From Elusimicrobiota bacterium (GTDB taxonomy: Bacteria; Elusimicrobiota; Elusimicrobia; UBA1565; UBA9628), in assembly GCA_026388095.1 (NCBI GenBank), contig JAPLKL010000069.1:8117-72116 (forward strand): 64,000 bases of DNA. Direction: 5' to 3'. Below, piece after piece: positions 1 through 15,544 of this stretch. Both the position numbers and the translations under genes were made by a program. The notes beneath the pieces are model-generated. The model made no database searches. It saw only the letters and a program-made list of their open reading frames with translations, and was not told where the DNA came from. The stretch's first letter is position 1. Each line of letters begins with the position of its first letter.

Positions 1-126
1 AGGCCTCGTCCTGCGGCAGGCCGAGGATGCTGGGACAGTCACCCAGCGCCGCGTAGATGGAGACATGGGAATGGCGGTCGCGCAGCGGGGGCAGTGAGAG
101 GGTTCGGCTCACGACTGCAATCATAC
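1..126 (-). CDS. Partial CDS (N-terminal ~42 codons; continues beyond the window start). Hypothetical, with a D-x-H-x-H metal-hydrolase-like motif.
   Basis: On the minus strand an ATG at 126 reads MIAVVSRTLSLPPLRDRHSHVSIYAAL... and runs open to the window edge. The ORF is too short to appear in the track. There is no clear SD sequence. Confidence 0.25.
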
Positions 127-164
127 CAAGATAGCGCGCGGTCCATTTGTTAGAATAACGCTCG

Positions 165-689
165 ATGACTCAGGCCGCCAAGATCCTGGAGCTGGGCTGC
201 GGCGCCAACAAGACGCCCGGCGCCGTGGGCGTAGACCGCGTGGCCGGCCCGGGCGTGGACGTGGTCCACGATCTCAGGCGCCTGCCCTGGCCCTTCCCGG
301 ACAGCTCATTCGACGAGCTCCGGCTCTCCCACGTCCTAGAGCACCTCGACGATGTCCTGGGCGCCATGGAGGAGATCCACCGCATCGCCCGCCCGGACGC
401 CCAGGTCCTCATCTGGACCCCCCATTACTCGTCCATGAACTCCTGGACCGACCCCACGCACTGCGTGCACATGGGCCTTCATCCCATGGACCTGTTCACC
501 AAGGACGCGCGCTACGATTACACGAGCGCGCGCTTCGCCGTCCTGGAGAAACGCATCACCTTCGGCCTGGGGCTGCTGTGCCTGCCCGGCAAGCTCATCA
601 ACGCCTGGTCCCCGGACGCCTTCGAGAAGTACTTCGCCTTCATGTTCCCGGCCCGGGACCTGTTCTTCCGGCTGCAGGTCCTCAAGTAG
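165..689 (+). CDS. Class I SAM-dependent methyltransferase (Methyltransf_11-like)
   Basis: LELGCGANKTPGAVGVD is a glycine-rich SAM motif I. An acidic motif II and the short ~174-aa length fit a small-molecule or protein methyltransferase. Confidence 0.8.
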   Translation: MTQAAKILELGCGANKTPGAVGVDRVAGPGVDVVHDLRRLPWPFPDSSFDELRLSHVLEHLDDVLGAMEEIHRIARPDAQVLIWTPHYSSMNSWTDPTHCVHMGLHPMDLFTKDARYDYTSARFAVLEKRITFGLGLLCLPGKLINAWSPDAFEKYFAFMFPARDLFFRLQVLK

Positions 690-695
690 CCCGGC

Positions 696-1838
696 TCATC
701 GGGAATAGAGCTTCTCGTAGCTCTCGGCGACCCGCTCCAATGAGAAGTCCCGGGCCGCTTTCTCCCGGGCGGCCGCGCCCAGGCGTCCCGCCAGGCCCGG
801 CTCGGCGAGGAACCTCCCGAGCTTGTCGGCCAGCTCGTCAGCGTCCTGGGGAGCGAAGAGCAGCCCGGTCTTGCCTTCCTCGACCGCCTCGGCCGTCCCC
901 CCCACCCGGCTGCCCAGCACGGCCAGCCCCGAGGCCATGGCCTCCAGGAGGGCGTTGGAAAGCCCCTCGGAGACGGAGGGGAGGACGAAGACGTCCGCGG
1001 CCGCGTAAGCCTCCGCGATCCGCTCCATGGAGGCAAGCACGAAGATGCGCCCCGCCAGCGGGCTGGCCCGCGCGAGCGTCCGAAGCTCTTCGCCTTCGAG
1101 CCCGTCTCCCACCAGCGCCGCGAAGCCCGGCCGGTCCGCCGCGGCTCGGCACCAAGCCGACAGGAACCGGCCCAACTGCTTCTCCGGCGCGAGCCTGCCC
1201 ACATAGAGGAAGCCCAGGCCTTCGGGCCAGCCCAGCTTGCGCCGCAGAGCCCGCTTCTCATCGGCCGAGACCGGACGGTAGCGGGCCGTGTCCACGCCGT
1301 TGGGCTGGACCTGGACCGGCACCGGCCCGAGGAACTGCGCGCATTCCTGGGCCAAGCCCTCGGTCACAGCCGCGAACTGCGGCTTGAGCCAGGAGAGCAG
1401 GCGCAGCTTCAAGCGCCCCCCGACCGTCCTGTCCGAGGTGGCGAGCTCGCCGATGCCGCGGCCGCCGCCGAGCTTGATGATGACGCGCTTGCCCAAAAGA
1501 CGGCCGGCCAACGCCGCGGGCAGAGCCGGGGAGCCGGCGAGGTGGACGTGCACGGCGGAATACTCGCGGGCCCCGGTCCAGAGCCGGAGCCAGAGGGACG
1601 CCATGAAGGTCAGCGCGTTGAGGAAGCCTCCCCCGGCGCACCAGAGGCGCTCCACCGGGACGCCACGGACCTCCTCGTAGGCGGCCAGGCCGGGCAGCCG
1701 CCGGGTCAGGACCCGGACCCGGACGCCGCGAGCGAGCAAGGCGACCGAGAGCTCCAGGGCCTGCTTCTCCGCCCCCCCCACATAGGGATGGAAGCCGGCG
1801 CTGATCATCCAGACCGACAGACCGGGCAGGGTGGCCAC
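696..1838 (-). CDS. Glycosyltransferase family 4 (GT-B, GT1/GT4 clan)
   Basis: N-terminal GGAEKQ motif. C-terminal EGLSNALLEAMASGLAV...GG is the EX7E-type GT4 signature. Confidence 0.85.
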   Translation of the reverse strand: MATLPGLSVWMISAGFHPYVGGAEKQALELSVALLARGVRVRVLTRRLPGLAAYEEVRGVPVERLWCAGGGFLNALTFMASLWLRLWTGAREYSAVHVHLAGSPALPAALAGRLLGKRVIIKLGGGRGIGELATSDRTVGGRLKLRLLSWLKPQFAAVTEGLAQECAQFLGPVPVQVQPNGVDTARYRPVSADEKRALRRKLGWPEGLGFLYVGRLAPEKQLGRFLSAWCRAAADRPGFAALVGDGLEGEELRTLARASPLAGRIFVLASMERIAEAYAAADVFVLPSVSEGLSNALLEAMASGLAVLGSRVGGTAEAVEEGKTGLLFAPQDADELADKLGRFLAEPGLAGRLGAAAREKAARDFSLERVAESYEKLYSR

Positions 1839-1847
1839 AGCCTCAGC

Positions 1848-3014
1848 TCAGTTGGGCCGGAAGAACTCGGCCGCCACGCGGTCCCACTGGGTGTCGCCAA
1901 GCTGCGCCAGCTCGCCGACATGGAGGGCCCCATCCTGATATTCGTCAGTGCCGCCCTGCGGAGCCAATTCTCCCATGAGCTTGCGGAACCGCTCCAGGTC
2001 GTCCTGGTACAAGGCCACGGCCGACTTGCCGATGCGGAGCTCGGGCACTTCGACGTCGAGGTTGTCGGCGTCGATGACGCAGATCCAGTTGCGCTGGTAG
2101 GGCGTCAGGTCGAGCGCCTCGCAGTCCTCGCTCAGAGCCGGGTTGACCTTGACCACCTGCCCGCTGACCGGGGCGTAGAACTGTGCCCGGCGGCCTTTCT
2201 GGCGGAGGCTGAACAGCGGCTGGCCGGCTTTGACCGTCATGCCCACGTTGGGGAACTCGATGGAGTCCACCGGGCCGATGAGCTTCTTGGCGAAATCGTC
2301 CAGGCCGACCTTCACGGAGCCGTCCTGAGCCATGCTGGCCCAGCAATGGCCGCGGGAGATCAGCACCCCGCCCGGGATGGAGAACTCGCCGGCGCGGGCG
2401 CGCTGAGGCTCGGGCAGGTGGGTGATGTGGACCTGCGGCTGCAGCTGCTTGGCCAAGCGGTCCTGCCTCCGGATCAGGACCTTCTTCACGAAAGCCCGCA
2501 GCTCGTCCTCGGTGAAGGGCTTCTGCACATAATCCAGCGCGCCGTGCTTCATGCACTCCACCGCGGACTCCACGGTGGCGTAGCCGGTGATGATGACGAC
2601 GTCGATGTCCGGGCGCATGTGCTTTACGGACTTGACGACCTCGACCCCGTCCAGCGCCGGCATGCGCAGGTCGGTGAAGACGAAATCGTAATGGTGGGTG
2701 CGGATGAGCCCCAGCGCCTCCTGGCCGGTCTCCACCGTGTCGACGCAGTAGCCGTCCAGCACCAGGATCTTGCGGAAGCTGTCCAGGATCACGGTCTCAT
2801 CGTCCACGCAGAGGATGCGCGCCGCTGGGTCGGCGACCTCGGCGCGCTTGAGGGTCTTGGCCTCCCTCTGAAAATCGAGCTTGAGGCTCACGGCCAGGGC
2901 CGCCTCGCGCTCGCGCCGGATGCGCTGGTCGCGCAGCCTCTGGGCGGCCGACCGCACCGCCAGGTCGGCGAGCACGAACAGGATGACGGAAAGGAACAGG
3001 AACACGATCACCAT
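1848..3014 (-). CDS. Response regulator: N-terminal TM helix, REC domain, C-terminal GcvH-like (glycine-cleavage H protein fold) domain
   Basis: REC motifs are present: the acid pocket ILCVDDE, the phospho-Asp in FVFTDLRMP, and KPF. The C-terminus reads HCWASM...VKVGLDDFAKKLIGPVDSIEFPNVGMTVKAGQPLFSL...FYAPVSGQVVKVNPAL..PYQRNW, which aligns with GcvH (HEW...VGITDHAQ...APVSGEIV..PYxxGW). An AAGGAG RBS lies 7 nt before the ATG. Confidence 0.8.
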   Translation of the reverse strand: MVIVFLFLSVILFVLADLAVRSAAQRLRDQRIRREREAALAVSLKLDFQREAKTLKRAEVADPAARILCVDDETVILDSFRKILVLDGYCVDTVETGQEALGLIRTHHYDFVFTDLRMPALDGVEVVKSVKHMRPDIDVVIITGYATVESAVECMKHGALDYVQKPFTEDELRAFVKKVLIRRQDRLAKQLQPQVHITHLPEPQRARAGEFSIPGGVLISRGHCWASMAQDGSVKVGLDDFAKKLIGPVDSIEFPNVGMTVKAGQPLFSLRQKGRRAQFYAPVSGQVVKVNPALSEDCEALDLTPYQRNWICVIDADNLDVEVPELRIGKSAVALYQDDLERFRKLMGELAPQGGTDEYQDGALHVGELAQLGDTQWDRVAAEFFRPN

Positions 3015-3042
3015 GATGGGTCTCCTTCGGCATCGGGTCTGG

Positions 3043-3810
3043 TCATAGTCGCTCCGGACTGCACGAGCTCAGGCTCTTGAGGTCGTACTCCAGGTCCGCG
3101 GGCAGGACGCGGTAGAGCCAGCCCGCGAAGTACGGGTCCTTCTCCACCGCCGCAGGGTCCGCGGCCAGACGCTCGTTGCGCTCCACGACCCTGCCGCTGG
3201 CCGGGCAGAGCAGGCCGTGGCGCGCGCCGCCCTCGGAGACGAACGCGGCGCAGGGGGCGCCCTGGATGACTTCGCCGCCGGCCGGCGCCAGCTCCACCGC
3301 GCTCACTCCCTCCAGGGTCTTCAAGAAAGCATCTCCCGCGCCTATCAGGACGCTGCCCTCCGGCTCGGTCTTGAGCCAGCTGATGGTGCCCAGGCGGAAA
3401 TATCCCGACGGGCACGGCGCCCAGCCCGTTTTTTGAAGCTTACTATATTTCAGTCCGCGCCGGACCACCGACGTCAGCTCGTCTTCGGTGAAAGGCTTGG
3501 GAAGGAAGTCGATGGCGCCCGCCGCCAGGGAGCGCACGGCGTTGTCCACCGTGGAATACCCCGTGACCATGACCACGGGGGTGCGCAGCCCCCGCCGCGC
3601 CGCTTCGGCGAGGAAGGCGAACCCGTCGAGGTCCGCCATCATGATGTCGCAGACGACGAGGCGGTAGGAGCGCTGCCGCAGGCGCTCCAGGCCCGCCGCC
3701 CCGCGGGCCGCGACGTCCACGGTCAGACCCTCGGCCGCGCAGATCTTGGCGACCGCCTGTCCGACCACGGGCTCGTCGTCGACGACCAGCACGTCGCGCT
3801 CCCGGCTCAT
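3043..3810 (-). CDS. Response regulator: REC domain plus GcvH-like domain lacking the lipoyl-lysine
   Basis: The start MSRERDVLVVDDEP was chosen inside the longer track ORF. Its ATG overlaps the histidine-kinase stop as ATGA. REC motifs are VVCDIMM and KPF. The C-terminal GcvH-like region reads CPASGRVVERNERL...PYFAGWLYRV with no Lys at the lipoylation position. Confidence 0.75.
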   Translation of the reverse strand: MSRERDVLVVDDEPVVGQAVAKICAAEGLTVDVAARGAAGLERLRQRSYRLVVCDIMMADLDGFAFLAEAARRGLRTPVVMVTGYSTVDNAVRSLAAGAIDFLPKPFTEDELTSVVRRGLKYSKLQKTGWAPCPSGYFRLGTISWLKTEPEGSVLIGAGDAFLKTLEGVSAVELAPAGGEVIQGAPCAAFVSEGGARHGLLCPASGRVVERNERLAADPAAVEKDPYFAGWLYRVLPADLEYDLKSLSSCSPERL

Positions 3811-5672
3811 GGCTTGACCGGGATGCGCAGCACGAAGGTGGTCCCGGCGCCGGGAGCGCTCTCCACGGCGATGGTCCCGTTGTGGTTGTCCATGATGCCC
3901 CAGACCACCGCCAGGCCCAGCCCGGTGCCCTTCTGCCCTTTGGTCGAATAGAAGGGCTCGAAGATCTTCTCCCGCACCTCCTGGGGCATGCCGCAGCCGT
4001 CGTCGCGGACCTTGAGCTCCACGAACTCCTTGCGGTCCATGCCGTCGACCTCCTCCCAGCGCTGCCAGCCGCAGCCCGGCCGCGTGCAGCCTTCCACGAG
4101 GCCCCGGGCCGGGACCTCGAAAACGTAGACCGCGGACCCGCACTCGGGGCAGACCTTCTTGTCGACGAGCAAAGAGACCGAGCACTCCGGGCACACGAAC
4201 CGGGCCCCTGGGGCTCCGGCGGCGGCGACGGCGTGATGGTGCCCGCCCATGCCGTACATCGGGTTGAGGTAGAGGAACCCCTCGGCCTTATCGGAACGCA
4301 CCCGGATGCGCACCGTGGGCCTGCCGTCGATGCGGACCTCCTCGTCCATGAGGCTGTGCCGCTTGGGGCAGACCGCCTTCTTGATCTGGGTGATGCCGAT
4401 GGGGGAGAGGCTGAGCGCGGAGGAGGAGACGGTGATGGTCCCGCCCTTCGGCCCGATGGCGTCCGCGGCGTTGACGAAGAGGTTGATGAAGACCTGCTGC
4501 ATCTGGTTGGCGTCCACGGTCACCTTGGGCATGTCCGGCGCCAGCGACAAGACGAGCCGGACGGCGTTGAGCGCGAGCTGGCTCTCGATGACCGTGGCGG
4601 CGCGCCCCACGATCTCGTTGATGTCGGCCTCCCCCTTCTTGGGGACCGACTGCCGCGCGAAATCCAGGAGGCTCTTGACGATCTCCCGGCTGCGGATGGT
4701 CTCGCGCACGATGACCTTAAGGTCCTCCTGCAGTTCCGGCTGGTCCTTGGTGCGCTTGAGCAGGAAGCTGCTGTAGGTGAGCACGCCGGTGAGCGGGTTG
4801 TTGATCTCGTGAGCGACGCCGGCCGCCAGGCGCCCCAGCGAGGCCAGCTTGTCGGACTGGAAGAGCTGCAGGCGCGCCTCGGAGAGCTTGCGGGTCATGT
4901 TGTTGAAGGACTGCGCCAGCAGGCCCAGCTCGTCGTCGCCGCGCTCCCGGATGGAGCATTCCAGGTCCCCGCCCGCCACGCGCCGGGTCGCCTCCACGAG
5001 CTCGCGGACCGGGGCGTCGACCCAGCGCCTGACCAGGAGCCCGACGATGAGACTCAGCGCCAGGATGGCGCCGACCGCGAAGACCAGGATGCCGAGCTGG
5101 CCGCGCCGGATGTCCCGGTCGACCGCGGCCAAAGACATGGAGACGTCGAGCACTCCCAGGACGACCTGCGCGCGGGGGTGGGCGTGGCAGGCCGCGGTCC
5201 AGCACGAGGGGGCGTTGTAGATGGGGTTGATGATGCCCAGCGTGCGCGCGCTGTCGGGGCGCAGCCGGAACACCCGGGTGCGCTCCTTCATGTCCAGGCG
5301 CTCGAGCGGCCGGTCCGCGGAATGGCAACGGTAGCAGCTCTCCGCCTTCTTGTCCACCATCTTGCCGATCTCGGCGCGGTCGGAGGAGTAGATGATCTCC
5401 CCGGCCTTGTTCATCACGCGGATGCGCTGGATGCTCTCCTGGCTCCCCAGCCTGCGGATGGTGTCGTAGATGCGGTCGCGCTGATTGAAGCGCATGTCGT
5501 ACTCGGTGCTGGACTTGACCGCCTCGCTGAGCTGGTTGGCGTGGCGCTCCACCTCGGCCAGCAGGCTGCTGCTGTGGGCGCGGCTGTTGAACTCGGCGAA
5601 TATGCCGATGGTCACCAGCGCCGTGGCGCAGACGGCCAGAGTCAGCTTGAGGCCGATCTTCTCCCGGATCAT
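3807..5672 (-). CDS. Sensor histidine kinase (TM, HAMP, HisKA, HATPase_c carrying a ~110-aa Cys-rich insert)
   Basis: Start MIREKIG at 5672 overlaps the cytochrome stop as ATGA. The HAMP-like linker is followed by the HisKA H-box LAAGVAHEINNPLT, then the N-box NLFVNAADA, a DDGCGMP G1-like box and a GTGLGLAVV G2 box. An insert between the N-box and G1 box contains CPKRH, CPEC, CPEC and CTRPGCGW. Confidence 0.8.
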   Translation of the reverse strand: MIREKIGLKLTLAVCATALVTIGIFAEFNSRAHSSSLLAEVERHANQLSEAVKSSTEYDMRFNQRDRIYDTIRRLGSQESIQRIRVMNKAGEIIYSSDRAEIGKMVDKKAESCYRCHSADRPLERLDMKERTRVFRLRPDSARTLGIINPIYNAPSCWTAACHAHPRAQVVLGVLDVSMSLAAVDRDIRRGQLGILVFAVGAILALSLIVGLLVRRWVDAPVRELVEATRRVAGGDLECSIRERGDDELGLLAQSFNNMTRKLSEARLQLFQSDKLASLGRLAAGVAHEINNPLTGVLTYSSFLLKRTKDQPELQEDLKVIVRETIRSREIVKSLLDFARQSVPKKGEADINEIVGRAATVIESQLALNAVRLVLSLAPDMPKVTVDANQMQQVFINLFVNAADAIGPKGGTITVSSSALSLSPIGITQIKKAVCPKRHSLMDEEVRIDGRPTVRIRVRSDKAEGFLYLNPMYGMGGHHHAVAAAGAPGARFVCPECSVSLLVDKKVCPECGSAVYVFEVPARGLVEGCTRPGCGWQRWEEVDGMDRKEFVELKVRDDGCGMPQEVREKIFEPFYSTKGQKGTGLGLAVVWGIMDNHNGTIAVESAPGAGTTFVLRIPVKP

Positions 5673-6430
5673 GGCTGGTCCTGGTGGCAATGAGAGCACT
5701 GGGCGTCGGCGTGGCAGGAGAAGCACGGCTTGTGCAGGGTCTCCATCGAGCGCTTCGGCTTCTTGGGCTGGGCCGCGGCTCCCGGCGGGCGCGGCTTGGG
5801 CTCGTGGCAGCCGGCGCAGGTCTGGTTCTGATGGCAGGCCGTGCACTCCAGGCCGAACTGCTTGACATGCGCTTCGTGCCGGAAGGTCACGAACCGGCCC
5901 TTCTGGGAGGAGGTCTCGTAGACGATGGGAGCCGGGAGCTTGGCTTGGGGGAAGCCCTTGGGCGCGCCGCCGGCTCCGGGGCCGGCCTTGCGGGCATGGC
6001 ATGAGCCGCAATCGGATTCGTGGCTCCACTGCAGGTGGCAATCGACGCATTGCCGGTGGCGGGCCCCCTTGAGGTCGGGCTTGGTCAGGTCCGTACGGCG
6101 GCGCGAGGACGAGTGGCATTCGCCGCACTTGAAGATGGGGCGCGACTGGTTGTAATGATGGCAACCGTAGCAGCCGTCGCCCATCTCCGCCAGCTTCGCG
6201 TGCGCCTTATGAGGGAAACGGACCGGCCCGTAGGTGTCGGAGAGCTCGCCCATCGTGATCGTGCGGGGAGCCTGCGAGAGGGGATGGCGCCCCCAGATCT
6301 TCTCGCGGGGGCAGCTGACCAGCGCCGGGCTCTCTCGGGTCGGCTTGTCGCTGGTGTGGCAGGTCCGGCAGTCGGCCGCGCCCCAGGCGCCCGTCAGCGC
6401 GGCCAGCCCCAGCGCCAGGAGCATCTTCAT
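5669..6430 (-). CDS. Multihaem c-type cytochrome (9 CxxCH motifs) with signal peptide
   Basis: Start MKMLLALGLAALTGAWGA is a signal peptide. Nine CxxCH haem-binding motifs are present: CRTCH, CYGCH, CGECH, CVDCH, CGSCH, CTACH, CAGCH, CFSCH and CSHCH. A GGA RBS sits at -8. Confidence 0.8.
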   Translation of the reverse strand: MKMLLALGLAALTGAWGAADCRTCHTSDKPTRESPALVSCPREKIWGRHPLSQAPRTITMGELSDTYGPVRFPHKAHAKLAEMGDGCYGCHHYNQSRPIFKCGECHSSSRRRTDLTKPDLKGARHRQCVDCHLQWSHESDCGSCHARKAGPGAGGAPKGFPQAKLPAPIVYETSSQKGRFVTFRHEAHVKQFGLECTACHQNQTCAGCHEPKPRPPGAAAQPKKPKRSMETLHKPCFSCHADAQCSHCHQDQP

Positions 6431-6434
6431 GGGT

Positions 6435-7670
6435 TCATCCGTGCACCGTGTACTTGGCCTTGGGCGAGAGGGTCCGGTCGGGCAGGCTGATGACCGGGAA
6501 GAGCAGCACCGCGGCGCGGTAGAGAAGGACGAGCAGGCTGATGAAGCCAACGGTCACGCAGACCTCGCCGAAAGCCGGGTGGTAGGGCCGCAGCGAATAC
6601 GGCGGCGTGTAGGCGATGAGGAAGTTGTCCACCCGGTTGACCGCCACCCCGGCCACGACCAGGGCCGAGGCCGTGAGGAGCAGGGCCGGGGACTTGAGGA
6701 CCGCGCGCGACATGAACATGCGCAAAGGGATGACCACGCCGAACAGGACCTCGACCATGAACATGACGCTGGCGGTATTGAATGTCGCCAGGTGGACGAA
6801 GGTCTCCCGGACGAACATGTCCCCGATCTTGAAGGCGAGGTAGACGCCCAAGAGCGGCGCGGTCATGCGGCCCAGTCCCGCCAGGACGGACATCTCGGGC
6901 TTGAGGCCGAAGGAGCGCGCCGCCAGGAGGGATTCCAGGATCACCATGGGGAAGCCCACCGAGACCGCGGAGAGCAGGAACAGCAGGGGCAGGATCGGGG
7001 TCTGCCAGAGGGGATGCATCTTGGGCCCGGCGATGACCATGAGCGTGCCCAAGGAGGACTGGTGCAAGGTGGAGAGCACGACGCCGGCGATGATGAAGAC
7101 GAACATGGTGCGCGCCAGGCCGCGGTCCAGGGCGGCGAGCAGGCGCTCCGCCAGGGGGTTGAGCCTGGCCAGAGGGCCCGGCAGAGCCACGCGCCCCAGG
7201 AAGCGCTCGACCGCCACGGGCAGGAACTCGATGTAGAGGACGTGGATGTAGATGACCACGCAGATGCCGACCTCGAAGAGGGCCGAGGTGCCGTTCCACA
7301 TGACCAGGGGATGCCAGATGTAGTAGGGACGCCCGATGTCGATGCAGACGCCCAAGGCCACGAAGGTGTAGCCCAGCAGCGCGGTGAGCAGGGCCGGCCG
7401 CACCACCGCGTGGTACTGCTCCCGGTGCATCACGTGGCCGAGCGCCGCCGTGGTGAAGCCTCCCGCGGCCAGGGCCACGCCCGCGGCCACGTCGATGCCG
7501 ATCCAGATGCCCCAGGGGTACTGGTTGCTCAGGTTCGTGACGGCTCCGATGCCGAAGAGCAAGCGGCCGGCCAGGAAGACCAGTCCGTTGAGGGCCAGAA
7601 GGATGAGCACTCCCACGCCGGGAGTCAGGAAGCGCCGGGGCAAGGGCGTGGGCCTCATGAAGCGGTCCAT
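6435..7670 (-). CDS. NrfD/PsrC-family polytopic membrane subunit (quinone-interacting)
   Basis: Start MDRFMRPTP is preceded by a GGAGG RBS and lies 2 nt after the FeS gene stop. The protein is ~411 aa with 8-10 predicted TM helices and resembles NrfD/HmcC/ActC/PsrC. Confidence 0.8.
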   Translation of the reverse strand: MDRFMRPTPLPRRFLTPGVGVLILLALNGLVFLAGRLLFGIGAVTNLSNQYPWGIWIGIDVAAGVALAAGGFTTAALGHVMHREQYHAVVRPALLTALLGYTFVALGVCIDIGRPYYIWHPLVMWNGTSALFEVGICVVIYIHVLYIEFLPVAVERFLGRVALPGPLARLNPLAERLLAALDRGLARTMFVFIIAGVVLSTLHQSSLGTLMVIAGPKMHPLWQTPILPLLFLLSAVSVGFPMVILESLLAARSFGLKPEMSVLAGLGRMTAPLLGVYLAFKIGDMFVRETFVHLATFNTASVMFMVEVLFGVVIPLRMFMSRAVLKSPALLLTASALVVAGVAVNRVDNFLIAYTPPYSLRPYHPAFGEVCVTVGFISLLVLLYRAAVLLFPVISLPDRTLSPKAKYTVHG

Positions 7671-7672
7671 GC

Positions 7673-8566
7673 TCAGGCCTCCTCCCCGGACTCCGGGCTG
7701 TGCTTGGCGATCCACATGACCGCCCCCAGCAGGGCGTAGAGCGAGACCGGCGGGATGAAGTAGGCGAATATGCCGTGCTGGATGCTCTCCGAGACCCCGG
7801 GCGCCGGGCTGCGTCCCAGACGGGGGAACTGGAGGGCGGCGAAGTCGACTCCGGAGAGGTAGAGCCAGTCGGTGCCGCCCACCTCGAACTCCCCGAAGAC
7901 GTGGCTCACGTAGCGCTCCGGGAAGCGCCGGACCCGGTCTTTGGCGATGCGCACCAGCTCCTCGCGCGGGCCGAAGGTCATGACCTCCATCGGGCAGATC
8001 TCCACGCAGGCCGGGATCCTCCCGGCCTTGCGCCGCTCGAAGCAGAAGTCGCACTTCATGATCCGGGGCTGGAGCGCCTTGTGATATTCGAAGGCCGGGA
8101 TCTGGAAGGGGCAGGCGATCATGCAGTAGCGGCAGCCGATGCACTTGTCCGTGTCCCAGACCACCGCGCCGTTCTCAGCCTTGGTGAGCGCGCCTACGAT
8201 GCAGGCCGAGACGCAGGCCGGCTGGGCGCAGTGCATGCACTGGACCTTCACGGTGACGGGGAGTCCGGGCTTGCGGGGGTTCTCGTAGCGGTTGACCACG
8301 GTCAGGGCCGTGTCGTCGGGGCGGCGCATCCGGGCGAAGACCGAGCGGTCCTCATAGGCTTCCTGAGGAGGGGTGGCCAGGCCGTGGGCCTGCTTGCAGG
8401 CGTATTCGCAGTTGCGGCAGCCGATGCAGACGGTGGTGTCCACGAGCACGCCGCTGCGCTCGGGCGCCGGCGACCGGCCGCCCGAGGCCTGGGCGGCGGA
8501 GGGAGTCAGCCCGGCGCCCAGGACCGCGGCGCCCGCCAGGAACTCCCGCCGGGTGAGGTTCGCCAC
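7673..8566 (-). CDS. 4Fe-4S ferredoxin-type iron-sulfur subunit with Tat signal (NrfC/HmcB/PsrB-like)
   Basis: A GTG start gives MANLTRREFLAGAAVLGA, which carries the twin-arginine RREFL motif. Four CxxCxxCxxxCP-type clusters are present: CIGCRNCEYAC, CMHCAQPACVSAC, CIGCRYCMIACP and CDFC...CVEICP. Confidence 0.75.
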   Translation of the reverse strand: MANLTRREFLAGAAVLGAGLTPSAAQASGGRSPAPERSGVLVDTTVCIGCRNCEYACKQAHGLATPPQEAYEDRSVFARMRRPDDTALTVVNRYENPRKPGLPVTVKVQCMHCAQPACVSACIVGALTKAENGAVVWDTDKCIGCRYCMIACPFQIPAFEYHKALQPRIMKCDFCFERRKAGRIPACVEICPMEVMTFGPREELVRIAKDRVRRFPERYVSHVFGEFEVGGTDWLYLSGVDFAALQFPRLGRSPAPGVSESIQHGIFAYFIPPVSLYALLGAVMWIAKHSPESGEEA

Positions 8567-8568
8567 GC

Positions 8569-9591
8569 CTATTTCCCTGCTCCCGGGTAGCGCGGCGGCA
8601 CGCGCAGGCCGCGCGCCGCGAGCATGGAGGCCAGGCGGCCGGGGTCGTCCGTGATGATGCCGTCCACGCCCCAGGACAGGAGCTTGGCGACGAGGCCGGC
8701 ATCGAATGTGGTCCCGAGCTTCTCGGGCCAGCTCCACACGACGACCTTGAGGCCCAGGCGGTGGGCCTCGGCGAGCGCCGCCTGGGTCAGCTCGGCGTCC
8801 TCGGGCTCCCAGGCGAAGCCGCCCAGGGCCTTGACCATCCTGGGGATGGAGCCGCCGTAGTCCTTGACGAGCGCGCCCCCGGTCCAGAGTCCCGCGGCCT
8901 TGGGGTCCTCGCCGTAGAAGCTGTCCGGCCCGCCGGGCTCGTTGTCCCGAGAGGTCAGGTAGGCGGTCTTGACGTTCCGGTCCAGCCGCCGCAGCTCGGA
9001 GAGGCAGCGCCAATCGAAGGCCTGGATCTCGGCGCGGCCGATGATGCCTTCCTCCTTGAGGATCCGGTGGAGGGCCTGGGCGAAAGCCTTGGGGTCCGGG
9101 CTGCGCTCCGGCTGGGCCGGGTCGGTCTTCATCTCGATCTGGAAGCCCATCTTATGCCGGGCGGCCTTCTCGACATAGCGCGCGACTTCGCGCAAAGTGG
9201 GCATGTGCGTGCCGTCCACCGGGACTTGGTCAGGGAAGAACTTGGCGTAAGCGCTCTCCGGGTTCAAGCGGCCCACGTCGAAGCTCTGGAGCTCGCGGAG
9301 CGTGAGGTCCTTGGCCGCGGGGCCCTTGGTGATGTAGCGCCCGGCGCTGTCGCGGGCGAGGTTCGGGCTGACCAGGAGGTCGTGGGAGACCAGCACTTCG
9401 CCGTCCTTGGTGAGCACGACGTCCATGTCCACCCAGTCCGCGCCGATGCTCAGAGCGGCCCGATAGGCGGGCAGGGTGTTCTCCGGGGCGAAGGAGCGGC
9501 CGCCGCGGTGGGCGTAGACCTGCACGGAGCCGGCGGGCGCGGCGGGCGCGGCCAGGACGAACGCCGAGAGCAGGGTCGTGAGTTGGGTCAT
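8569..9591 (-). CDS. Glycerophosphodiester phosphodiesterase (GDPD family) with signal peptide
   Basis: Motifs YAHRGG, PENTLPA and DxD...E/H match GDPD. The N-terminus is a hydrophobic signal peptide. A GAGG RBS is present. Confidence 0.85.
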   Translation of the reverse strand: MTQLTTLLSAFVLAAPAAPAGSVQVYAHRGGRSFAPENTLPAYRAALSIGADWVDMDVVLTKDGEVLVSHDLLVSPNLARDSAGRYITKGPAAKDLTLRELQSFDVGRLNPESAYAKFFPDQVPVDGTHMPTLREVARYVEKAARHKMGFQIEMKTDPAQPERSPDPKAFAQALHRILKEEGIIGRAEIQAFDWRCLSELRRLDRNVKTAYLTSRDNEPGGPDSFYGEDPKAAGLWTGGALVKDYGGSIPRMVKALGGFAWEPEDAELTQAALAEAHRLGLKVVVWSWPEKLGTTFDAGLVAKLLSWGVDGIITDDPGRLASMLAARGLRVPPRYPGAGK

Positions 9592-10261
9592 GTCGCCTCA
9601 GCGCCCCGGGGCGCTGTCCCCATTGTACTATCTTTGCGGAATGCGACAGGCATGACGGCGGTCATGGGTTGCACCCACTGAAAGCAGGTAGGCTGGCGAA
9701 ATGCCGTACCGGCCCTGGCGGCGCAGAGCGCCGCCAGGCGCGCGCCCCGCTATTCCTCTGGGGCGCGCAACCTCATGAAAGCACATTGTCCCGGAATCGT
9801 ACATGCCTGTCCGTGATGGCTGGCCGCAAGCAGAAGACCGATATGGCGCGGTCCGCTTGCGCACCAGCCTCCGGATGGGGTCACAGCCCTCTATTGAGGT
9901 TGCGCGCGTGAGAGGAAAGGACGCGCGCGGGTTCCGGCGCCGGGCGCCGGAACCTCCATTGTGATGGGCTTTCTGGATGACTGCAAAAGACGGCGCCTGC
10001 GGTATCGGAAGTTCCACCGGTGCCGGCCGGACGGATCTCCTTACGGCCGGCGACTTCGCGAGATAAAAGTATTTATGCCACCAGCGCTTTTTGATATTTC
10101 ACCGCCAGCGCTGGAGGTAATGTGACGAAAAATACATGCGCCGCCAACACTTTCTTGTTCAGAAGTCGCCGCGCTTGGCGCGACTCGACGGTCGGTGAAA
10201 ATCACCTACTTATCTTGGGTGCGCCCGCGGTCATGGCTTCGGGATAGGCCTCGGGCGAGAC

Positions 10262-11683
10262 TCAGAGCTTCTGCCGCAGCAAAGCGTCCATATCGAAGCT
10301 CGCGGCATCCGCCGCGCGGGGCGCCACCCCGAGACGTTCTCTGAGATAATCCAGAGCCTGTCGCGCGCGCCGGATATGGTAGCGTTCGGACGCCTCCTGC
10401 AGCATGGGCGCCGCGAGAAGCGGCATCCGGGCCTGGAGATATCTGAGCCCGGTCATCTCCAGGAGCTCCTCATGACGCATGCCGGTATCCCGGGGCAGGT
10501 CCGCCGCGTAAGGGGAGATCTGCGGAGCCGGGACCTCGCGAGGCGACACGGCCGACGGCTCGCGATGCTGCAGGACTTCGTCGATCGCGCGGCTCCAGAG
10601 GAAGGCCAGGGTCCAATTCCCCTCCATGGAAAGATGTATCCCGTCCACGATGAAAGGGAACGACAGGACGCCCCGCGGCGAGGCCCGGACGATGAAGTCC
10701 CGCAGTCCGACGACGTGCCCGCCGAAACGGCGCGCGGACCGTTTCCAGCATTCGCCGCGTTCGATGATCCGGTCGTCGCCCCTCACCAAGGATCGCGCCA
10801 GCGAATCGGGATCGCAGCCCTTGGTGAGCCGGCAGACCAGCAGCCGGCGATAGTCGCCGTCGCAGGCGTCCAGGAAGGAGCCCAGCGATCCGTCCCCCGC
10901 CTCGCGCCTGCGCGTGTACTCCAGAGACGTCACGGTGCTCTGGACGGGCGTGGTCACCACGGTCTCAGCGCCCATCTGCCGGGCCGTCTGAACCAGCAGA
11001 TCCGTCCAGGCTTGGAAAGCGAGGTCCGCGTCGCACCGGTCGTGCCCCGGGAACTGAGGGCCGCCCCGTTGACGGAGCAGCGAGATCAGGAGGTCGGGCC
11101 CCCGCGCCCTCACGGTCCAGAGCAGATGGGAACGCTCCACGAGCCGCCGCCAAAGGCCATGCGCCTTCGGCCGGCTCAAGGGCAGGCACGCCTCGGAGTC
11201 CGTGTCGAAGCGGTCGTTCACCCCTTGATAGAAGATGATGAGGTCCGGCTGGTATCGTCTTATGGCGAGCAGGTAGTAGTAGGCATCCATGGCCATCGAG
11301 CCGGCGCGCCCCATGTTGACGACCGTGATGGGCCGGTCCGGCAGCCTGGCGCGCAGGAAGTCGCGGAGCATGGTGGGCGCGCTGCCGAAAGGCCCCCAAG
11401 GACTGCCCTGGACACTCGACTCTCCGAAGACGAACACGCGCAGCTCTCCCTTCCGGCGCCGCCGGCCCAGGGGCGCGCCCGGGCGGTGGTCCGATATCCC
11501 GTGGTCGCTGATGCGGTAGTTCACCAGCGGCAGCCGACTGACGTAGACGCCTTCTTTCAACAGCACCGGCGCCGGCACCGGGAGGAAGAGCCGAGTCAGG
11601 AGTTCGAGGGCCGAGACCGTCAAGACGAAGCTGGCCGCCGATAGCGCCACCCGCGGCAGCAGGAAGCGCAGGGCCTTGCGCAT
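10262..11683 (-). CDS. SGNH/GDSL-family hydrolase, membrane-anchored
   Basis: Start MRKALRFLLP was chosen within the longer track ORF, 2 nt after the upstream stop. The protein has an N-terminal TM helix. VFVFGESSVQGSPWG is a GDS(L)-type block I, and a later D...H lies near the C-terminus. Confidence 0.65.
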   Translation of the reverse strand: MRKALRFLLPRVALSAASFVLTVSALELLTRLFLPVPAPVLLKEGVYVSRLPLVNYRISDHGISDHRPGAPLGRRRRKGELRVFVFGESSVQGSPWGPFGSAPTMLRDFLRARLPDRPITVVNMGRAGSMAMDAYYYLLAIRRYQPDLIIFYQGVNDRFDTDSEACLPLSRPKAHGLWRRLVERSHLLWTVRARGPDLLISLLRQRGGPQFPGHDRCDADLAFQAWTDLLVQTARQMGAETVVTTPVQSTVTSLEYTRRREAGDGSLGSFLDACDGDYRRLLVCRLTKGCDPDSLARSLVRGDDRIIERGECWKRSARRFGGHVVGLRDFIVRASPRGVLSFPFIVDGIHLSMEGNWTLAFLWSRAIDEVLQHREPSAVSPREVPAPQISPYAADLPRDTGMRHEELLEMTGLRYLQARMPLLAAPMLQEASERYHIRRARQALDYLRERLGVAPRAADAASFDMDALLRQKL

Positions 11684-11685
11684 GC

Positions 11686-12711
11686 CTACCCGCGGCGCCT
11701 GCGCGCCAGCACCCCGGGCTTGGGGACCAATCCGTGGGGCAGGACCTTGAGCACGTCGAAGCCCGCCTCTTCGCACCAGGCGGCCAGCTCCTCCTTGGTG
11801 TGGTGGGACTGGAACGGCGGAGAGAGCCAATCGAAGTTCTCGATGAGCCGGACCCGGTAGCTCGGGTGCACGGAGAAGGTCAGGTACTTCACCAGGGGCA
11901 GGGCTCCCAGCGCGGCCAGCGGGGAGCACAGCAGGTAGACCAAAGCCAGCGGCAGGCGCGTCGTGAACACGCGCAGGCAGTCGCTGAGCAGATGCCTCGC
12001 CCCCACCACGAACCAGGCCAGACGCCGGTGCTCCTCCACCCAGGCCCGCTCCGGCCGCAGAGGATTCGTCGCGAAATCCTCGAAGCTCCCGGCCTTGCCG
12101 TAGAGCCACACGCTCAGAAGCCCCCCCGGCTTGACCAGCCTGGCCACGGCCAGGAACGCCTCATGCGCATCCTTGGTGTGATGCAGGACCCCGTGGCTGT
12201 AGACGAGATCGAAGAACCCGGCCCGGAACGGCGGCTTGAGCAGGTCGCCCTGCACCACGTGCAGGCGCTCCTCCTCGCGAGCGAAGGGCGCCAGCCTGGC
12301 CAGGCTCCCGGACAGGTCCACCCCCGCCACCTCCGCGCCCAGAGACAGCGCCACCAAGGTGTAGCGTCCCATGCCGCAGCCCGCGTCGAGCACGGTCTTG
12401 CCCTGCAGCTCTGCGGCCTCCAGCTGGCACTCCTCCAGGAACACCGCCTGGTCCTCGGCCAAGGAGCCCGGATAGCGCGACCACTCCCAAGTGAAGCTCC
12501 GGCTCGTCGCGGCCACGCGCGCATCGATCTGCTCCTCGAGCAGGAGCCGCGGCACGGACTCGGCGATCGGATACTCGCGGCGGCAGGAGCCGCAGGCCAG
12601 GCTGCCCGCCTCGATGTCCGCCTTCGGCTCCGGCATCACGCTCAAGCTCGCGAAGCGCATTGGCGCGCCGCAGCAGGGCGACGCCAGCCAACCCAGCAGA
12701 CCCATCTTCAT
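11686..12711 (-). CDS. SAM-dependent methyltransferase with N-terminal Trm112-like zinc ribbon
   Basis: The MKMG start overlaps the upstream stop as ATGA. CCGAP...CGSCRREYPIAESVPRLL is a Trm112p-like CxxC...CxxC ribbon. VLDAGCGMGRY is SAM motif I. Confidence 0.7.
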   Translation of the reverse strand: MKMGLLGWLASPCCGAPMRFASLSVMPEPKADIEAGSLACGSCRREYPIAESVPRLLLEEQIDARVAATSRSFTWEWSRYPGSLAEDQAVFLEECQLEAAELQGKTVLDAGCGMGRYTLVALSLGAEVAGVDLSGSLARLAPFAREEERLHVVQGDLLKPPFRAGFFDLVYSHGVLHHTKDAHEAFLAVARLVKPGGLLSVWLYGKAGSFEDFATNPLRPERAWVEEHRRLAWFVVGARHLLSDCLRVFTTRLPLALVYLLCSPLAALGALPLVKYLTFSVHPSYRVRLIENFDWLSPPFQSHHTKEELAAWCEEAGFDVLKVLPHGLVPKPGVLARRRRG

Positions 12712-13700
12712 GCCTTCATCCTCCGCAGGAAGTCCTTGATCCCGCCCAAAGTGAGCCCCACGCGGTAGAGGAAGACCAGCCCCATGCCCGTCACCAGGAC
12801 GAACGTGCACATGTGCAGGAACACCGCGTAAGCCAAAGCCTCGGGGGGCGCGGCGCCCAGCTTGACCACGATCGATTTCACCAAAGACTCGAAGGTCCCG
12901 ATCCCGCCCGGCGCCGCGGGCAAAGCCGCGCCCGCTCCGGCCCAGGAGAGCACGAGGATGGCCCGCGGATAATCGATCCAGCCCTGCAGCCCCAGAGCGA
13001 AGGCCCCCAGCCGGAACACCAGCGCATCGACCGACCAAAGCGCCAAGCTCAGGGCCGCCACGGGGATGAGAGCCCGCGGCTGGCGCAGCACCGCCGCGCC
13101 CAAGGCCAGGTGCGTCATGATCTCGTGGACCTTGCGCCACGAGCGCAGGCGGCGCTCCACGAACCCCCCCGGCTCCAGGCTGCGCTCCGCCAAGGTGAGG
13201 AAGAGCAGGCCGCCGACCACCGCCGCCAGCAGCGCCGCGGCGACTTGACGCAGGTGGGCATCGACGATGCCGGGCTGCAAGGCCGCGGCGGTGACGAAAA
13301 GGGTCAGCAGCGCCGCCACGTCCAAGACGCGCTCGACCACCACGCTCGCCAGGACGGTGGCCAGAGGCACACGCAGCCTCTCGGCCGCCAGCACCGCGCG
13401 CAGCAGCTCGCCCAGACGGGCGAAGAGCAGATTGTTGACCGCCAAGCCGATGGTGGAAAGCCGGAACAGCTCGCCCAACGGCGCCTTCACGGCCCCCGAG
13501 AGCAGGATGCGCCAGCGCAGAGCGCGCAGCCCGATGTCCGCGAACATGATGATGAAGATGATCCCGGGCAGCCAGCGCCAGCGCGCGCCGGCCAGAGCCC
13601 GGCCCAGGTCCGCGTACTGCACGTTGCGCAGGGCCAAAGCCAGGAAGAGCCCCGTAAATCCCAAGGCCACCGCCACGGACAGGATCTTGCGGCGGCTCAC
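12708..13700 (-). CDS. Flippase-like membrane protein (lysyl-PG synthase TM region / UPF0104 family)
   Basis: A GTG start at 13700 overlaps the YfhO stop as GTGA. The protein is 330 aa and polytopic (..WRWLPGIIFIIMFADIGLRALRW..). The upstream part of the track ORF cannot be real because it lies on the same strand as the YfhO-like gene and is occupied by it. Confidence 0.6.
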   Translation of the reverse strand: MSRRKILSVAVALGFTGLFLALALRNVQYADLGRALAGARWRWLPGIIFIIMFADIGLRALRWRILLSGAVKAPLGELFRLSTIGLAVNNLLFARLGELLRAVLAAERLRVPLATVLASVVVERVLDVAALLTLFVTAAALQPGIVDAHLRQVAAALLAAVVGGLLFLTLAERSLEPGGFVERRLRSWRKVHEIMTHLALGAAVLRQPRALIPVAALSLALWSVDALVFRLGAFALGLQGWIDYPRAILVLSWAGAGAALPAAPGGIGTFESLVKSIVVKLGAAPPEALAYAVFLHMCTFVLVTGMGLVFLYRVGLTLGGIKDFLRRMKA

Positions 13701-15544
13701 AGCGCCCCCGCCCGCAGCAGGGCTCCGCAGGAAGCCAACCAGGCGGACCAAGCCAGGAGCCCGATCAGGACGAAAATGGTCCAATGGACCGGCCGAAAAT
13801 CCAGGCGCAGGTCCACGTCCCGGCCCGCCGCACCCGGCGGCATGCGCACGGCCTGGAAGAAACCCCATGGCTCCAAGACCGCGGGAGCCCCGTCCAGCCA
13901 GGCGCGCCAGCCCGGATAGGCCGGGACCGTCGCCACCAGACGCTGCGCACCGGGCGGCGCCCGGCCCGCGATCCGCCAGCGCTCCGGCCTCGGAGACCCG
14001 ATGTCCAATGACGCCGCCTCCGGCCCCCCCGCGGAGGTGAAGAAAGCCAGCGGCAGAGCGCCGGCATTGGGCACAAGCTCGCCCTCGGCCGTCAGCCGAT
14101 AGGCGACCCCGGCCAGACGCATCAGCGGCGTGTCGGCGCGGGACAGATAGGAGCGGCTGGCGTCCGCGGCGGGCCTGCCCTCGCTGGCCGCGGCGAAGGC
14201 GGGGAAGCCCCCCAGGTAGAACGCGTCGTAGCCGTTGACGTTCATGGCCCGGTAGAGCATGGTCTTGTCCGCGCTGGCCAAGGCCGGGTCGCTGAGGATG
14301 CGCAAAGGCCGTCCGCCCGCGGCCCGGGCCAAAGCGGAGTTGACGGAGAGATAGCGGGCGGAGCTCTCCGACTTGACGAAGGGGCTTGCCCACGAGAGCA
14401 GCTGCACGAAGGCCGCGGCCAGAATGAAGGCCTTGAGCTCCGGCTTGAGCGAGCTTTCCCAGCGGCGCGCTCCGGCGCCGGCGGCCATGACCAGCCCCCA
14501 CAGGGACAAGAGGAGGTATCGCGACGGCGTCCTCAGCAGGCCGGCGGGCCCCGCGCTCGCGAGCCGGTAGAGCGGATTGTTCCAGCCCAGGGCCAGGAAC
14601 ACACCCAGCCCGATCAGCACCGCGGCGCGCCAGGCGCGCGCGCGCCACAGCCCGGCCGCGGCGGCCAAAAGCCCGGCCCAGCCGATGAAGACCCCGGAGG
14701 ACTCGAAGAACACCGACGGAACGTCTCCCCAGGTCCCGTCCAGGGGATTGCCCAGGGCGTTGGGCCAGAGCCAGGTGAGCAGGTCCCGCGGCGAGACCGA
14801 ATAGGCGGCGAGGAAGGATTGCGGCCAGTTCCGGCGCACGGAGAGGCTCACGAACCGCCAGGTGTCCGGCCATTGCATGATCGCCAGGACCGCCGCGCCC
14901 AAGCCCGCGCAGGCGAGCCGGCCCATGAGCCGGCCGCGCTCCTTGCGGCACAACGCCCAGGCCGCCATGCCTGCGGCGTTGGCGAGCAGGAACTGCGGAT
15001 GCCCGGAAAGGAACTGCAGGGCCCAGGCCGCGGCCAGCAAGCCCGGCCGGCAGGACAGGAATGCCAGCCAGCACCAAGGCACCCAGGCCAAGGCGGCGAG
15101 CAAGGTCGGTATGCCTTCGGTCACGCGGTAGAGGACGAAGGGCGAGAAGCAGTAGAGGCCGGCCAAGAAGAGCGCCGCTGCGGAGCTTAGGCCTTCGCGC
15201 CGCGCCAGCAGCAGCAGGCCCAGGCCGCCCCAGAGGATGTGCAGGGCGAAATCCCAGGACAAAGCCAAGGCCAGAGGCAGTATCCGGGAGAGCACGCTGA
15301 GCGGATAGAAAAGGCCGGCCTGGGAATTCGCCGAGAGCGGGCCGCCGCAGAAGATGTAGGGGTTCCAGAACGGCAGACGGCCCTCTTGCAGGGCGCCGCT
15401 GACCAAGGCGCGCAGGGGATGATGATAGGCGTAAAGGTCGCCGAACCCGGCCAGGGCCGCCGTCGGCGAGAAGACCGCCGGAGCGAGCAGCGCCAGGACC
15501 AGGCCGGAAAAAAGCGCGAATGCGCCGGAGTCTTTGGCCCTCAT
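13697..15544 (-). CDS. YfhO-family polytopic membrane protein (GT-C-like glycosyltransferase)
   Basis: 615 aa, more than 10 TM helices, N-terminal WNPYIFCGGP motif typical of YfhO/DUF2079-like glycan transferases. Confidence 0.75.
   Translation of the reverse strand: MRAKDSGAFALFSGLVLALLAPAVFSPTAALAGFGDLYAYHHPLRALVSGALQEGRLPFWNPYIFCGGPLSANSQAGLFYPLSVLSRILPLALALSWDFALHILWGGLGLLLLARREGLSSAAALFLAGLYCFSPFVLYRVTEGIPTLLAALAWVPWCWLAFLSCRPGLLAAAWALQFLSGHPQFLLANAAGMAAWALCRKERGRLMGRLACAGLGAAVLAIMQWPDTWRFVSLSVRRNWPQSFLAAYSVSPRDLLTWLWPNALGNPLDGTWGDVPSVFFESSGVFIGWAGLLAAAAGLWRARAWRAAVLIGLGVFLALGWNNPLYRLASAGPAGLLRTPSRYLLLSLWGLVMAAGAGARRWESSLKPELKAFILAAAFVQLLSWASPFVKSESSARYLSVNSALARAAGGRPLRILSDPALASADKTMLYRAMNVNGYDAFYLGGFPAFAAASEGRPAADASRSYLSRADTPLMRLAGVAYRLTAEGELVPNAGALPLAFFTSAGGPEAASLDIGSPRPERWRIAGRAPPGAQRLVATVPAYPGWRAWLDGAPAVLEPWGFFQAVRMPPGAAGRDVDLRLDFRPVHWTIFVLIGLLAWSAWLASCGALLRAGAL

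Follow-up and report, generated by a model that had tools for sequence, protein, structure and literature searches.

A conserved six-gene cassette pairing a quinone-interacting redox module with a predicted haem-bearing histidine kinase and GcvH-like response regulators in an Elusimicrobiota genome

Six consecutive minus-strand genes in a 64,000-nucleotide stretch of DNA from an Elusimicrobiota bacterium (GenBank assembly GCA_026388095.1, contig JAPLKL010000069.1, positions 8,117 to 72,116 of the forward strand; 'the window' below) encode, in the direction of transcription, an iron–sulphur (FeS) protein, an NrfD-like membrane protein, a multihaem cytochrome c, a sensor histidine kinase and two response regulators (RR1 and RR2) in which a receiver is joined to a GcvH-like domain. 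The cassette would be a redox-sensing two-component system built from known parts. Sequence comparison leads us to favour, at a little better than even confidence, the explanation that it is a redox-signalling unit whose quinone module is wired to haems of the kinase; probably the condition of the respiratory chain is signalled in this way, a route for which there is no earlier description. The analysis took as its input the window sequence and its list of open reading frames (ORFs), with domains assigned by Pfam and NCBIfam profile searches, and bore out the gene order, the domains and all five intergenic spacings given in an initial annotation. The range given there, 3043–8566, covers the genes from the FeS protein to RR1 and omits the sixth gene, RR2, which reaches 1848.

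Haem motifs of the kinase and linkage to the redox module

The kinase (5672..3807, minus strand; 621 aa) is laid out as a first transmembrane (TM) segment, a predicted dihaem PAS/Cache-like domain, a second TM segment, HAMP, HisKA, and a HATPase_c domain that holds an insertion. HAMP, HisKA and HATPase_c all scored above their Pfam cut-offs, H288 and the N, G1, F and G2 boxes were invariant in a kinase alignment (A1), and the protein is predicted to be catalytically complete. Its periplasmic sensor (about residues 32–193; 5094..5579, minus strand) carries two putative attachment motifs for c-type haem: C113-Y-R-C116-H117 (5322..5336, minus strand) and C157-WTAA-C162-H163, of the form Cx4CH and followed by H165 (5184..5204, minus strand). 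CxxCH, Cx4CH and H165 were all invariant in alignment A1. Across a sensor family of 1133 clusters (E ≤1e-3), both motifs were in register in 129/145 representatives; motif 1 was present in 31/35 family kinases scanned, and kinases as little as about 25% identical still had the motifs. M60 and H165, both invariant, may be the distal haem ligands.

An AF2 (AlphaFold2) model of the sensor, confident to a pLDDT (predicted local distance difference test score) of 73, shows a single PAS/Cache-like domain between the two TM segments, and Foldseek aligned this predicted structure with the sensors of WalK, CitA and DctB and with the GSU0935 haem c sensor (3b42, E 4e-4). An extracytoplasmic PAS/Cache fold together with conserved predicted attachment motifs would place the domain in the haem c PAS/Cache class. 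At the level of sequence it had no significant family match in Pfam and nothing meaningful among PDB sequences, where the best match was to roadblock/LC7 proteins at E ≥0.28 and the solved haem c sensors went unmatched. A protein search with the sensor domain alone gave only fragments, which were used just for the alignment behind the structure model.

The link between kinase and redox module recurs in relatives. Searches from the NrfD side were independent of those from the kinase side, and their counts are confined to metagenome contigs long enough to tell: the FeS gene lay upstream of NrfD in 61/61 and the cytochrome gene downstream in 70/70, and the kinase sensor was present in 48/51, the RR1 GcvH domain in 38/41 and the RR2 GcvH domain in 33/36. 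NrfD identity among relatives was 56–79%, and coupling of NrfD to the kinase was near one-to-one down to about 61%. The exceptions (L162, L166 and L167) were stand-alone FeS–NrfD–cytochrome modules, two with an NrfD identity of 56–57% and the third of 64%. From the kinase side, full-length homologues (about 621 aa) were 62–87% identical and came from metagenome-assembled genomes (MAGs) named Elusimicrobia, Gemmatimonadetes, Ignavibacteriales and Kiritimatiellaeota, an Elusimicrobia MAG protein matching at 100%; relatives of the cassette as a whole were named Elusimicrobia, Gemmatimonadetes, Ignavibacteria, Kiritimatiellaeota and Verrucomicrobiia by their sources. The kinase-side scan of a genome collection used a generic kinase peptide pattern, and about half of the 80 loci that it listed were unrelated kinases and were ignored. 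From the kinase side the full cassette was seen in at least L081, L082, L083 and L005; its carriers include relatives of Ignavibacteria and Melioribacter (L005). A search for exact copies of the window kinase and of protein P0001 matched no contig on record, and gene context was taken from homologues. Synteny, on which the initial annotation had made its inference depend, thus holds from kinase-based and NrfD-based searches alike.

Gene order was identical in L081 and L082/L083, with unrelated flanks. An Elusimicrobiales genome (L084, 8001–15308) kept all six genes in the permuted order HK–RR1–FeS–NrfD–Cyt–RR2 (HK, histidine kinase; Cyt, cytochrome). The nearest relatives of the window, L087 (5106–11067) and L088, share its short cytochrome and the ATGA overlap of that gene with the kinase gene, and lack the GDPD and GT4 genes that adjoin the window cassette; L087 also lacks RR1. 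A degraded copy (L085, 848–5170) has lost NrfD and the cytochrome, and an FeS remnant of 112 aa stands immediately ahead of its kinase. Family kinases with no FeS–NrfD neighbours were found at six of the loci listed (L002, L007, L013, L019, L021 and L025). Clustering of the adjacent genes on both sides gave lineage-specific groups only, with no conserved seventh gene, and the cassette is for that reason regarded as a self-contained six-gene unit. No catalytic subunit of molybdopterin or hydrogenase type was encoded in any of the cassettes examined. Two lineage-specific additions were seen: a gene for a 650–770 aa multihaem cytochrome follows RR2 on the same strand in one lineage (L005, L123, L136, L138, L139, L142, L144, L151 and L152), and a Macro-domain gene stands after the cassette instead in L081 (14144–14671) and L102.

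A larger sister family, here called type B (cassettes of the window's kind being type A), was defined by domain-level tblastn and called genes. Its order is a TM-anchored GcvH-like protein, FeS, NrfD, a second GcvH-like protein with an N-terminal four-Cys motif, a dihaem kinase and a sigma54 NtrC-type regulator; both GcvH-like proteins carry, close to the C-terminus, the motif G[APT]T[ML]xDGG. Type B occurs in Acidobacteriota, Bacteroidota, Planctomycetota and others (examples are L081 643–6012, minus strand; L086 4724–8126, minus strand; and L008–L063), and often lies divergently beside type A (at least 14 of 80 metagenome loci). Of 17 cassettes of type B or intermediate form, 16 had no ORF for a multihaem cytochrome within their span, and in about 13 a CxxCH-bearing ORF occupied the kinase position. 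The type B kinase (about 530–545 aa) is without the insertion in the ATP-binding domain. GcvH-like proteins accompany FeS–NrfD even where no receiver is fused to them and, in L086, where the cassette has no kinase of its own. The RR2 GcvH domain and tail are homologous to the stand-alone TM-anchored GcvH-like proteins of type B, and because of this homology type A looks like a derivative of type B, one that would have acquired a cytochrome and, on its two GcvH-like proteins, receivers.

The initial annotation had suggested that the state of the complex is sensed directly by a dedicated kinase. That suggestion gains support from the conserved haem motifs of the sensor and from the type B kinase, which appears to be the usual sole haem protein of its cassette.

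Redox proteins, regulators and gene layout

The FeS protein (8566..7673, minus strand; 297 aa, GTG start) is predicted to be Tat-exported, from its twin-arginine motif TRREFL, to hold four [4Fe-4S] clusters, from four cluster motifs that contain 16 Cys, and to be anchored by a hydrophobic C-terminal tail, which aligned with that of E. coli HybA. These are the features of a Tat-dependent tail-anchored ferredoxin (twin-arginine signal, four Cys motifs, C-terminal hydrophobic helix). Pfam Fer4_11 matched at E 6.6e-21, and Pfam TAT_signal fell below its threshold (18.7 bits vs 22.7). The NCBIfam scores for HmcB (318.1 bits, cut-off 420) and HybA (245.3 bits, cut-off 263) were both below cut-off. 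NrfD (7670..6435, minus strand; 411 aa), an integral membrane, quinone-interacting subunit by family, belongs to the Pfam NrfD superfamily (PF03916, 77.2 bits vs a gathering threshold of 25.8, E 2.3e-21); it too scored below the NCBIfam cut-offs for HybB (334.5 bits, cut-off 450) and HmcC (264.3 bits, cut-off 550). It shares 33% identity with E. coli HybB. Compared with the quinone-site and ion-channel residues listed for HybB (PMC8076601), it keeps D58, D109, S129 and E133 of the quinone site, with Thr in place of S190, and most of the ion-channel residues. The likeness to quinone-interacting complexes of the Nrf, Hmc, Qrc and Act types that the initial annotation had drawn is correct, and can be narrowed to HmcB/HybA for the FeS protein and HybB/HmcC for NrfD; Act and Qrc are not the closest.

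The periplasmic cytochrome (6430..5669, minus strand; 253 aa) is of class III, with a Sec signal, exactly nine CxxCH and a Cytochrom_CIII match at E 6.6e-13. Its description as a nonahaem protein holds for the window and for its two nearest relatives, L087 and L088 (255–260 aa), the only ones with this form, in which the C-terminal tetrahaem domain is absent; it does not extend to the family, as 58/66 complete orthologous cytochrome ORFs carry 13 CxxCH (long genes are, for example, L081 8757–9920 and L082 8871–9998). The window cytochrome is evidently a lineage-specific shortening of the 13-haem form by loss of the tetrahaem domain.

The kinase insertion (128 aa, about residues 421–548; 4029..4412, minus strand) separates the N box from the G1 box and is Cys-rich, all-beta and zinc-ribbon-like, with a model pLDDT of 84. 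Its eight invariant residues, C435, H439, C494, C497, C508, C511, C529 and C534, might form two Zn sites or an Fe-S site. A fold search with the model gave no match, and the insertion is also missing from L136.

RR1 (3810..3043, minus strand; 255 aa) consists of a receiver (Response_reg, E 1.5e-26) and a GcvH-like domain (GCV_H, E 1.1e-14), and RR2 (3014..1848, minus strand; 388 aa) of an N-terminal TM anchor, a juxtamembrane linker, a receiver (Response_reg, E 5.5e-29), a GcvH-like domain (GCV_H, E 6.8e-19) and a tail. The DD pair, acceptor Asp, Thr and Lys are all visible in both, as expected of two-component receivers, and both receivers are probably phosphorylation-competent. The output domains are homologous to solved GcvH structures (E 5e-17 and 8e-11); at the position of the E. 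coli GcvH lipoyl-lysine, K64, both regulators have Gly, and orthologues have G/N/K/H or others. With that lysine replaced the GcvH-like domains could not carry lipoate, and a lipoyl-carrier function was rejected. The DNA-binding regulator classes OmpR, NarL and NtrC were likewise rejected, RR1 and RR2 showing only Response_reg and GCV_H in Pfam, with NCBIfam matches confined to the receiver; the regulators, which the initial annotation called atypical, are unusual in joining receiver (REC) and GcvH-like domains with no DNA-binding domain. A comparison of RR2 with plasmids gave receiver-domain matches only, none of them full-length.

Short conserved segments lie outside the domains proper. At the C-terminus, RR1 orthologues share the tail C-S-[SP]-[DE]-R-[LMV] (window 3043–3060, minus strand), and RR2 has a highly conserved juxtamembrane linker, REREAALAVSLxLDFxREAKTLKR (window 2850–2930, minus strand), and a conserved W..(A/V).EFF tail. 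Their conservation suggests that the RR1 tail and the RR2 linker and tail are protein contact surfaces.

The genes are closely packed. FeS and NrfD are separated by 2 nt (TGA-GC-ATG) and NrfD and the cytochrome by 4 nt (TGA-ACCC-ATG); the cytochrome and kinase genes overlap by 4 nt in an ATGA, as do kinase and RR1 in another ATGA; and the gap between RR1 and RR2 is 28 nt. The flanking genes are close as well, with 2 nt between the end of a GDPD gene and the FeS start and 9 nt from RR2 to the start of a GT4 gene. Transcription in this genome may accordingly take in more than the six genes, and spacing by itself is no proof of shared function. A consensus scan of 600–10400 found no sigma70-like promoter, the cytochrome/kinase junction included, and no terminator-like site between those two genes; an internal promoter or terminator there, which the initial annotation had said would weaken its case, was thus not seen. 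The sole minus-strand terminator-like site of the scan lies inside RR1 (3350..3334), the number of sites being at chance level. Matches to sigma54 promoters in the window were fewer than expected by chance, and none at ≥9/11 matches was found near type B cassettes. No Rfam family or tRNA was matched in window 1–13000.

The cassette is surrounded by envelope and lipid genes (8569–9591, 696–1838 and 10262–15077, all minus strand), namely those for the secreted GDPD, GT4, a GDSL-like lipase, methyltransferases and an LPG_synthase_TM protein; relatives keep none of these neighbours. Upstream of GDPD is a 670-nt intergenic stretch (window 9592–10261) with no Rfam family or tRNA and with a TACAAT-like hexamer about 30 nt ahead of the GDPD start; GC content dips to 0.61 in 10001–10500, against about 0.67–0.69 in neighbouring blocks. 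The stretch is likely to be the GDPD promoter region, and perhaps serves the cassette too.

Proposed signal flow and competing explanations

In the explanation that we favour, the NrfD subunit would, by homology, exchange electrons with the membrane quinone pool, and the tail-anchored FeS protein would carry them on the periplasmic side. By way of the multihaem cytochrome in type A, they may then reach two predicted covalent haems of the kinase sensor. The redox poise of these haems would set kinase autophosphorylation; it would mirror the quinone pool and any periplasmic partners of the cytochrome, and perhaps the proton-motive force. The kinase would phosphorylate soluble RR1 and membrane-anchored RR2. 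GcvH-like outputs that are non-lipoylatable and not DNA-binding lead us to expect a post-translational response, by protein–protein contact. The most likely target of the regulators would be the FeS–NrfD complex or the kinase itself, since GcvH-like proteins recur with FeS–NrfD even without receivers; the alternative is a conserved H-protein partner. What argues for a wire to the kinase is the near one-to-one coupling, the lack of a catalytic subunit and the self-contained, permutable cassette, and also that in type B the kinase is usually the only haem partner encoded for the FeS protein. That the signal combines quinone poise with proton-motive force, NrfD having kept its channel residues, is speculation.

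A stronger form of this explanation, possible and at best tentative, is that FeS, NrfD, the cytochrome where present and the kinase form a supercomplex, in which the kinase, as terminal acceptor of menaquinol electrons, reads both quinone and proton-motive force, and a phosphorylated, non-lipoylatable H-protein mimic gates NrfD or acts as a decoy for lipoyl- or H-protein-dependent enzymes. If true, this would give a new class of response regulator, with phosphorylation controlling such a mimic.

Several points weigh against the wired signalling unit. Covalent attachment of two haems in the sensor is predicted from motifs, and contact of the FeS protein or the cytochrome with the kinase is deduced by comparing cassettes. 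The degraded copy L085 has kept kinase and regulators with only the FeS remnant, and the six family kinases that have no FeS–NrfD neighbours imply that the sensor domain can work with no module beside it. Moreover, NrfD appears to have kept its ion-channel residues, as in the energy-coupled HybB, and a cytochrome of nine to 13 haems exceeds the needs of a simple sensor wire; both would fit a true respiratory branch. A rival account, rather less likely, is that the trio is an ordinary quinol:periplasmic-acceptor oxidoreductase of the Hmc/Nhc/Ohc kind with a two-component system of its own, the module being the target that is regulated or assisted and not the input, while the kinase haems sense NO, CO, O2 or ambient periplasmic redox independently of it. 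The quinone-site and proton-channel residues that NrfD shares with HybB speak for it, together with the large 13-haem cytochrome of type A and the 650–770 aa multihaem cytochrome after the cassette in one lineage; trios stand alone in the most distant relatives (L162, L166 and L167) and are described in the literature (doi 10.1101/2023.11.02.564894), and haem Cache sensors fused to signalling modules act as NO sensors (PMC12889525). Such an oxidoreductase would, however, be served by regulators that lack a DNA-binding domain, which makes transcriptional control of the operon unlikely; type B mostly has no cytochrome besides the kinase, leaving the FeS protein no other encoded partner; and the cassettes encode no catalytic subunit and couple NrfD to the kinase almost one-to-one down to about 61% identity.

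The direction of signalling might also be reversed, which we consider quite unlikely: the kinase would sense periplasmic redox, and phosphorylated RR2, with RR1, would bind the cytoplasmic face of NrfD and switch quinone turnover or proton coupling, making a self-regulating respiratory valve. The GcvH-like proteins that flank FeS–NrfD in type B, in L086 with no kinase of the cassette's own, are consistent with this, as is RR2 itself, which is homologous to them, has a TM anchor and an inserted receiver, and shows a highly conserved linker; a self-contained cassette in sources named under several phyla likewise favours an internal target. Against it, the type B regulator is a sigma54 transcription factor, with which the output leaves the cassette at least there, and we know of no precedent for cytoplasmic regulation of an NrfD-type subunit. 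A valve is in any case compatible with the wired signalling unit and does not exclude it. The closeness of unrelated envelope genes, GDPD at 2 nt and GT4 at 9 nt, is what can be said for fortuitous adjacency, or for an operon of unrelated functions. That is hardly credible: the synteny is seen in dozens of independent contigs with different flanks, from MAGs that bear the names of several phyla, and the rearrangement in L084 has not parted the six genes. Synteny conserved from both the kinase and the NrfD sides was the ground for rejecting chance adjacency.

Relation to known systems

No description of the cassette, of the REC–GcvH regulators or of the type B family was found in the literature searched. 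To our knowledge, sensing of the state of the respiratory chain is known for few systems (ArcB, RegB/PrrB and Aer), none with a dedicated quinone-coupled wire to the sensor. As a compact six-gene unit the cassette offers a testable model of redox-to-phosphorylation coupling, and it exposes two uncharacterised parts: a response-regulator output with a non-lipoylated H-protein fold, and a Cys-rich insertion in the ATP-binding domain of a kinase. Since the larger type B family extends to Acidobacteriota, Bacteroidota and Planctomycetota, anaerobic and soil bacteria may make wide use of the principle.

The redox trio has close counterparts. Hmc, Nhc and Ohc complexes, known from sulfate reducers and their relatives, and E. 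coli HybA–HybB of hydrogenase 2 have the same Tat-exported, tail-anchored 4x[4Fe-4S] protein and cofactor-less NrfD-family quinone subunit (PMC8076601), and Hmc, Nhc and Ohc also share with the cassette a periplasmic class III multihaem cytochrome (doi 10.1101/2023.11.02.564894). A comparable trio is described in the same study; its cytochrome is octahaem, and it stands alone, its neighbours not being conserved. Downstream of hmc in D. vulgaris lies the gene of a response regulator, Rrf1, which the papers found simply call a regulator; that it might be a REC–GcvH protein is conjecture. The cassette differs from Hmc, Nhc and Hyb in its order, FeS–NrfD–cytochrome, in having no HmcDEF, NhcD or hydrogenase, and in being tied to a dihaem kinase and REC–GcvH regulators. 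Membership of each was rejected. For Hmc, the HmcB and HmcC scores are below cut-off, HmcA scores 46.5 bits vs 400, there are nine or 13 haems against the 16 of HmcA, the HmcD, HmcE and HmcF subunits are absent, and no cytochrome b or HdrD-like genes lie in the cassette. For NhcABCD, the NF045784 score is 22.6 bits against a cut-off of 640, and the nine haems here come from loss of the tetrahaem domain. For the HybA/HybB of hydrogenase 2, scores are below cut-offs and the cassette has no hydrogenase genes.

Haem c sensors of the PAS/Cache type are known, including some with two motifs (GSU0591, GSU0599, Adeh_2011 and Adeh_3383; PMC3831638), and sCache_haem (DUF3365) sensors are fused to signalling modules (PMC12889525). 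The sensor of the window kinase resembles Geobacter GSU0935/GSU0582 and sCache_haem proteins in having an extracytoplasmic PAS/Cache fold with c-haem motifs fused to signalling modules, but has its own signature, CxxCH plus Cx4CH, and no sequence-level match to GSU0935/GSU0582. Assignment to sCache_haem/DUF3365 (Tll0287-like, PF11845) was rejected, the window sensor giving no match and the type B kinase only E 0.19 (12.6 bits vs 24.1). In the literature on such sensors that was consulted, systematic pairing of a haem c sensor with an FeS–NrfD module is not described.

A quinone-linked cytochrome complex together with a receiver regulator is also found in Geobacter sulfurreducens, where BccR, a sigma54-dependent receiver regulator, controls expression of cbcBA (doi 10.1101/2021.04.15.440034). 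BccR is sigma54-dependent like the type B regulator; CbcBA, however, is of bc-type and not FeS–NrfD, and BccR is a transcription factor, whereas the window regulators have no DNA-binding domain. To GcvH itself the output domains of RR1 and RR2 are homologous, but they are without the lipoyl lysine, and each is joined to a receiver, with a membrane anchor in addition in RR2.

Kinases that read the respiratory chain, their activity set by the redox state of its components or by the electron flow through them, include ArcB and RegB, which sense quinone, PrrB, which is signalled to by the cbb3 oxidase, and TorS, whose periplasmic domain is contacted by the multihaem cytochrome TorC. ArcB, RegB, PrrB and TorS use cysteines, direct quinone binding or a housekeeping respiratory enzyme, whereas the cassette described here has a dedicated module and a kinase with haem motifs of its own.

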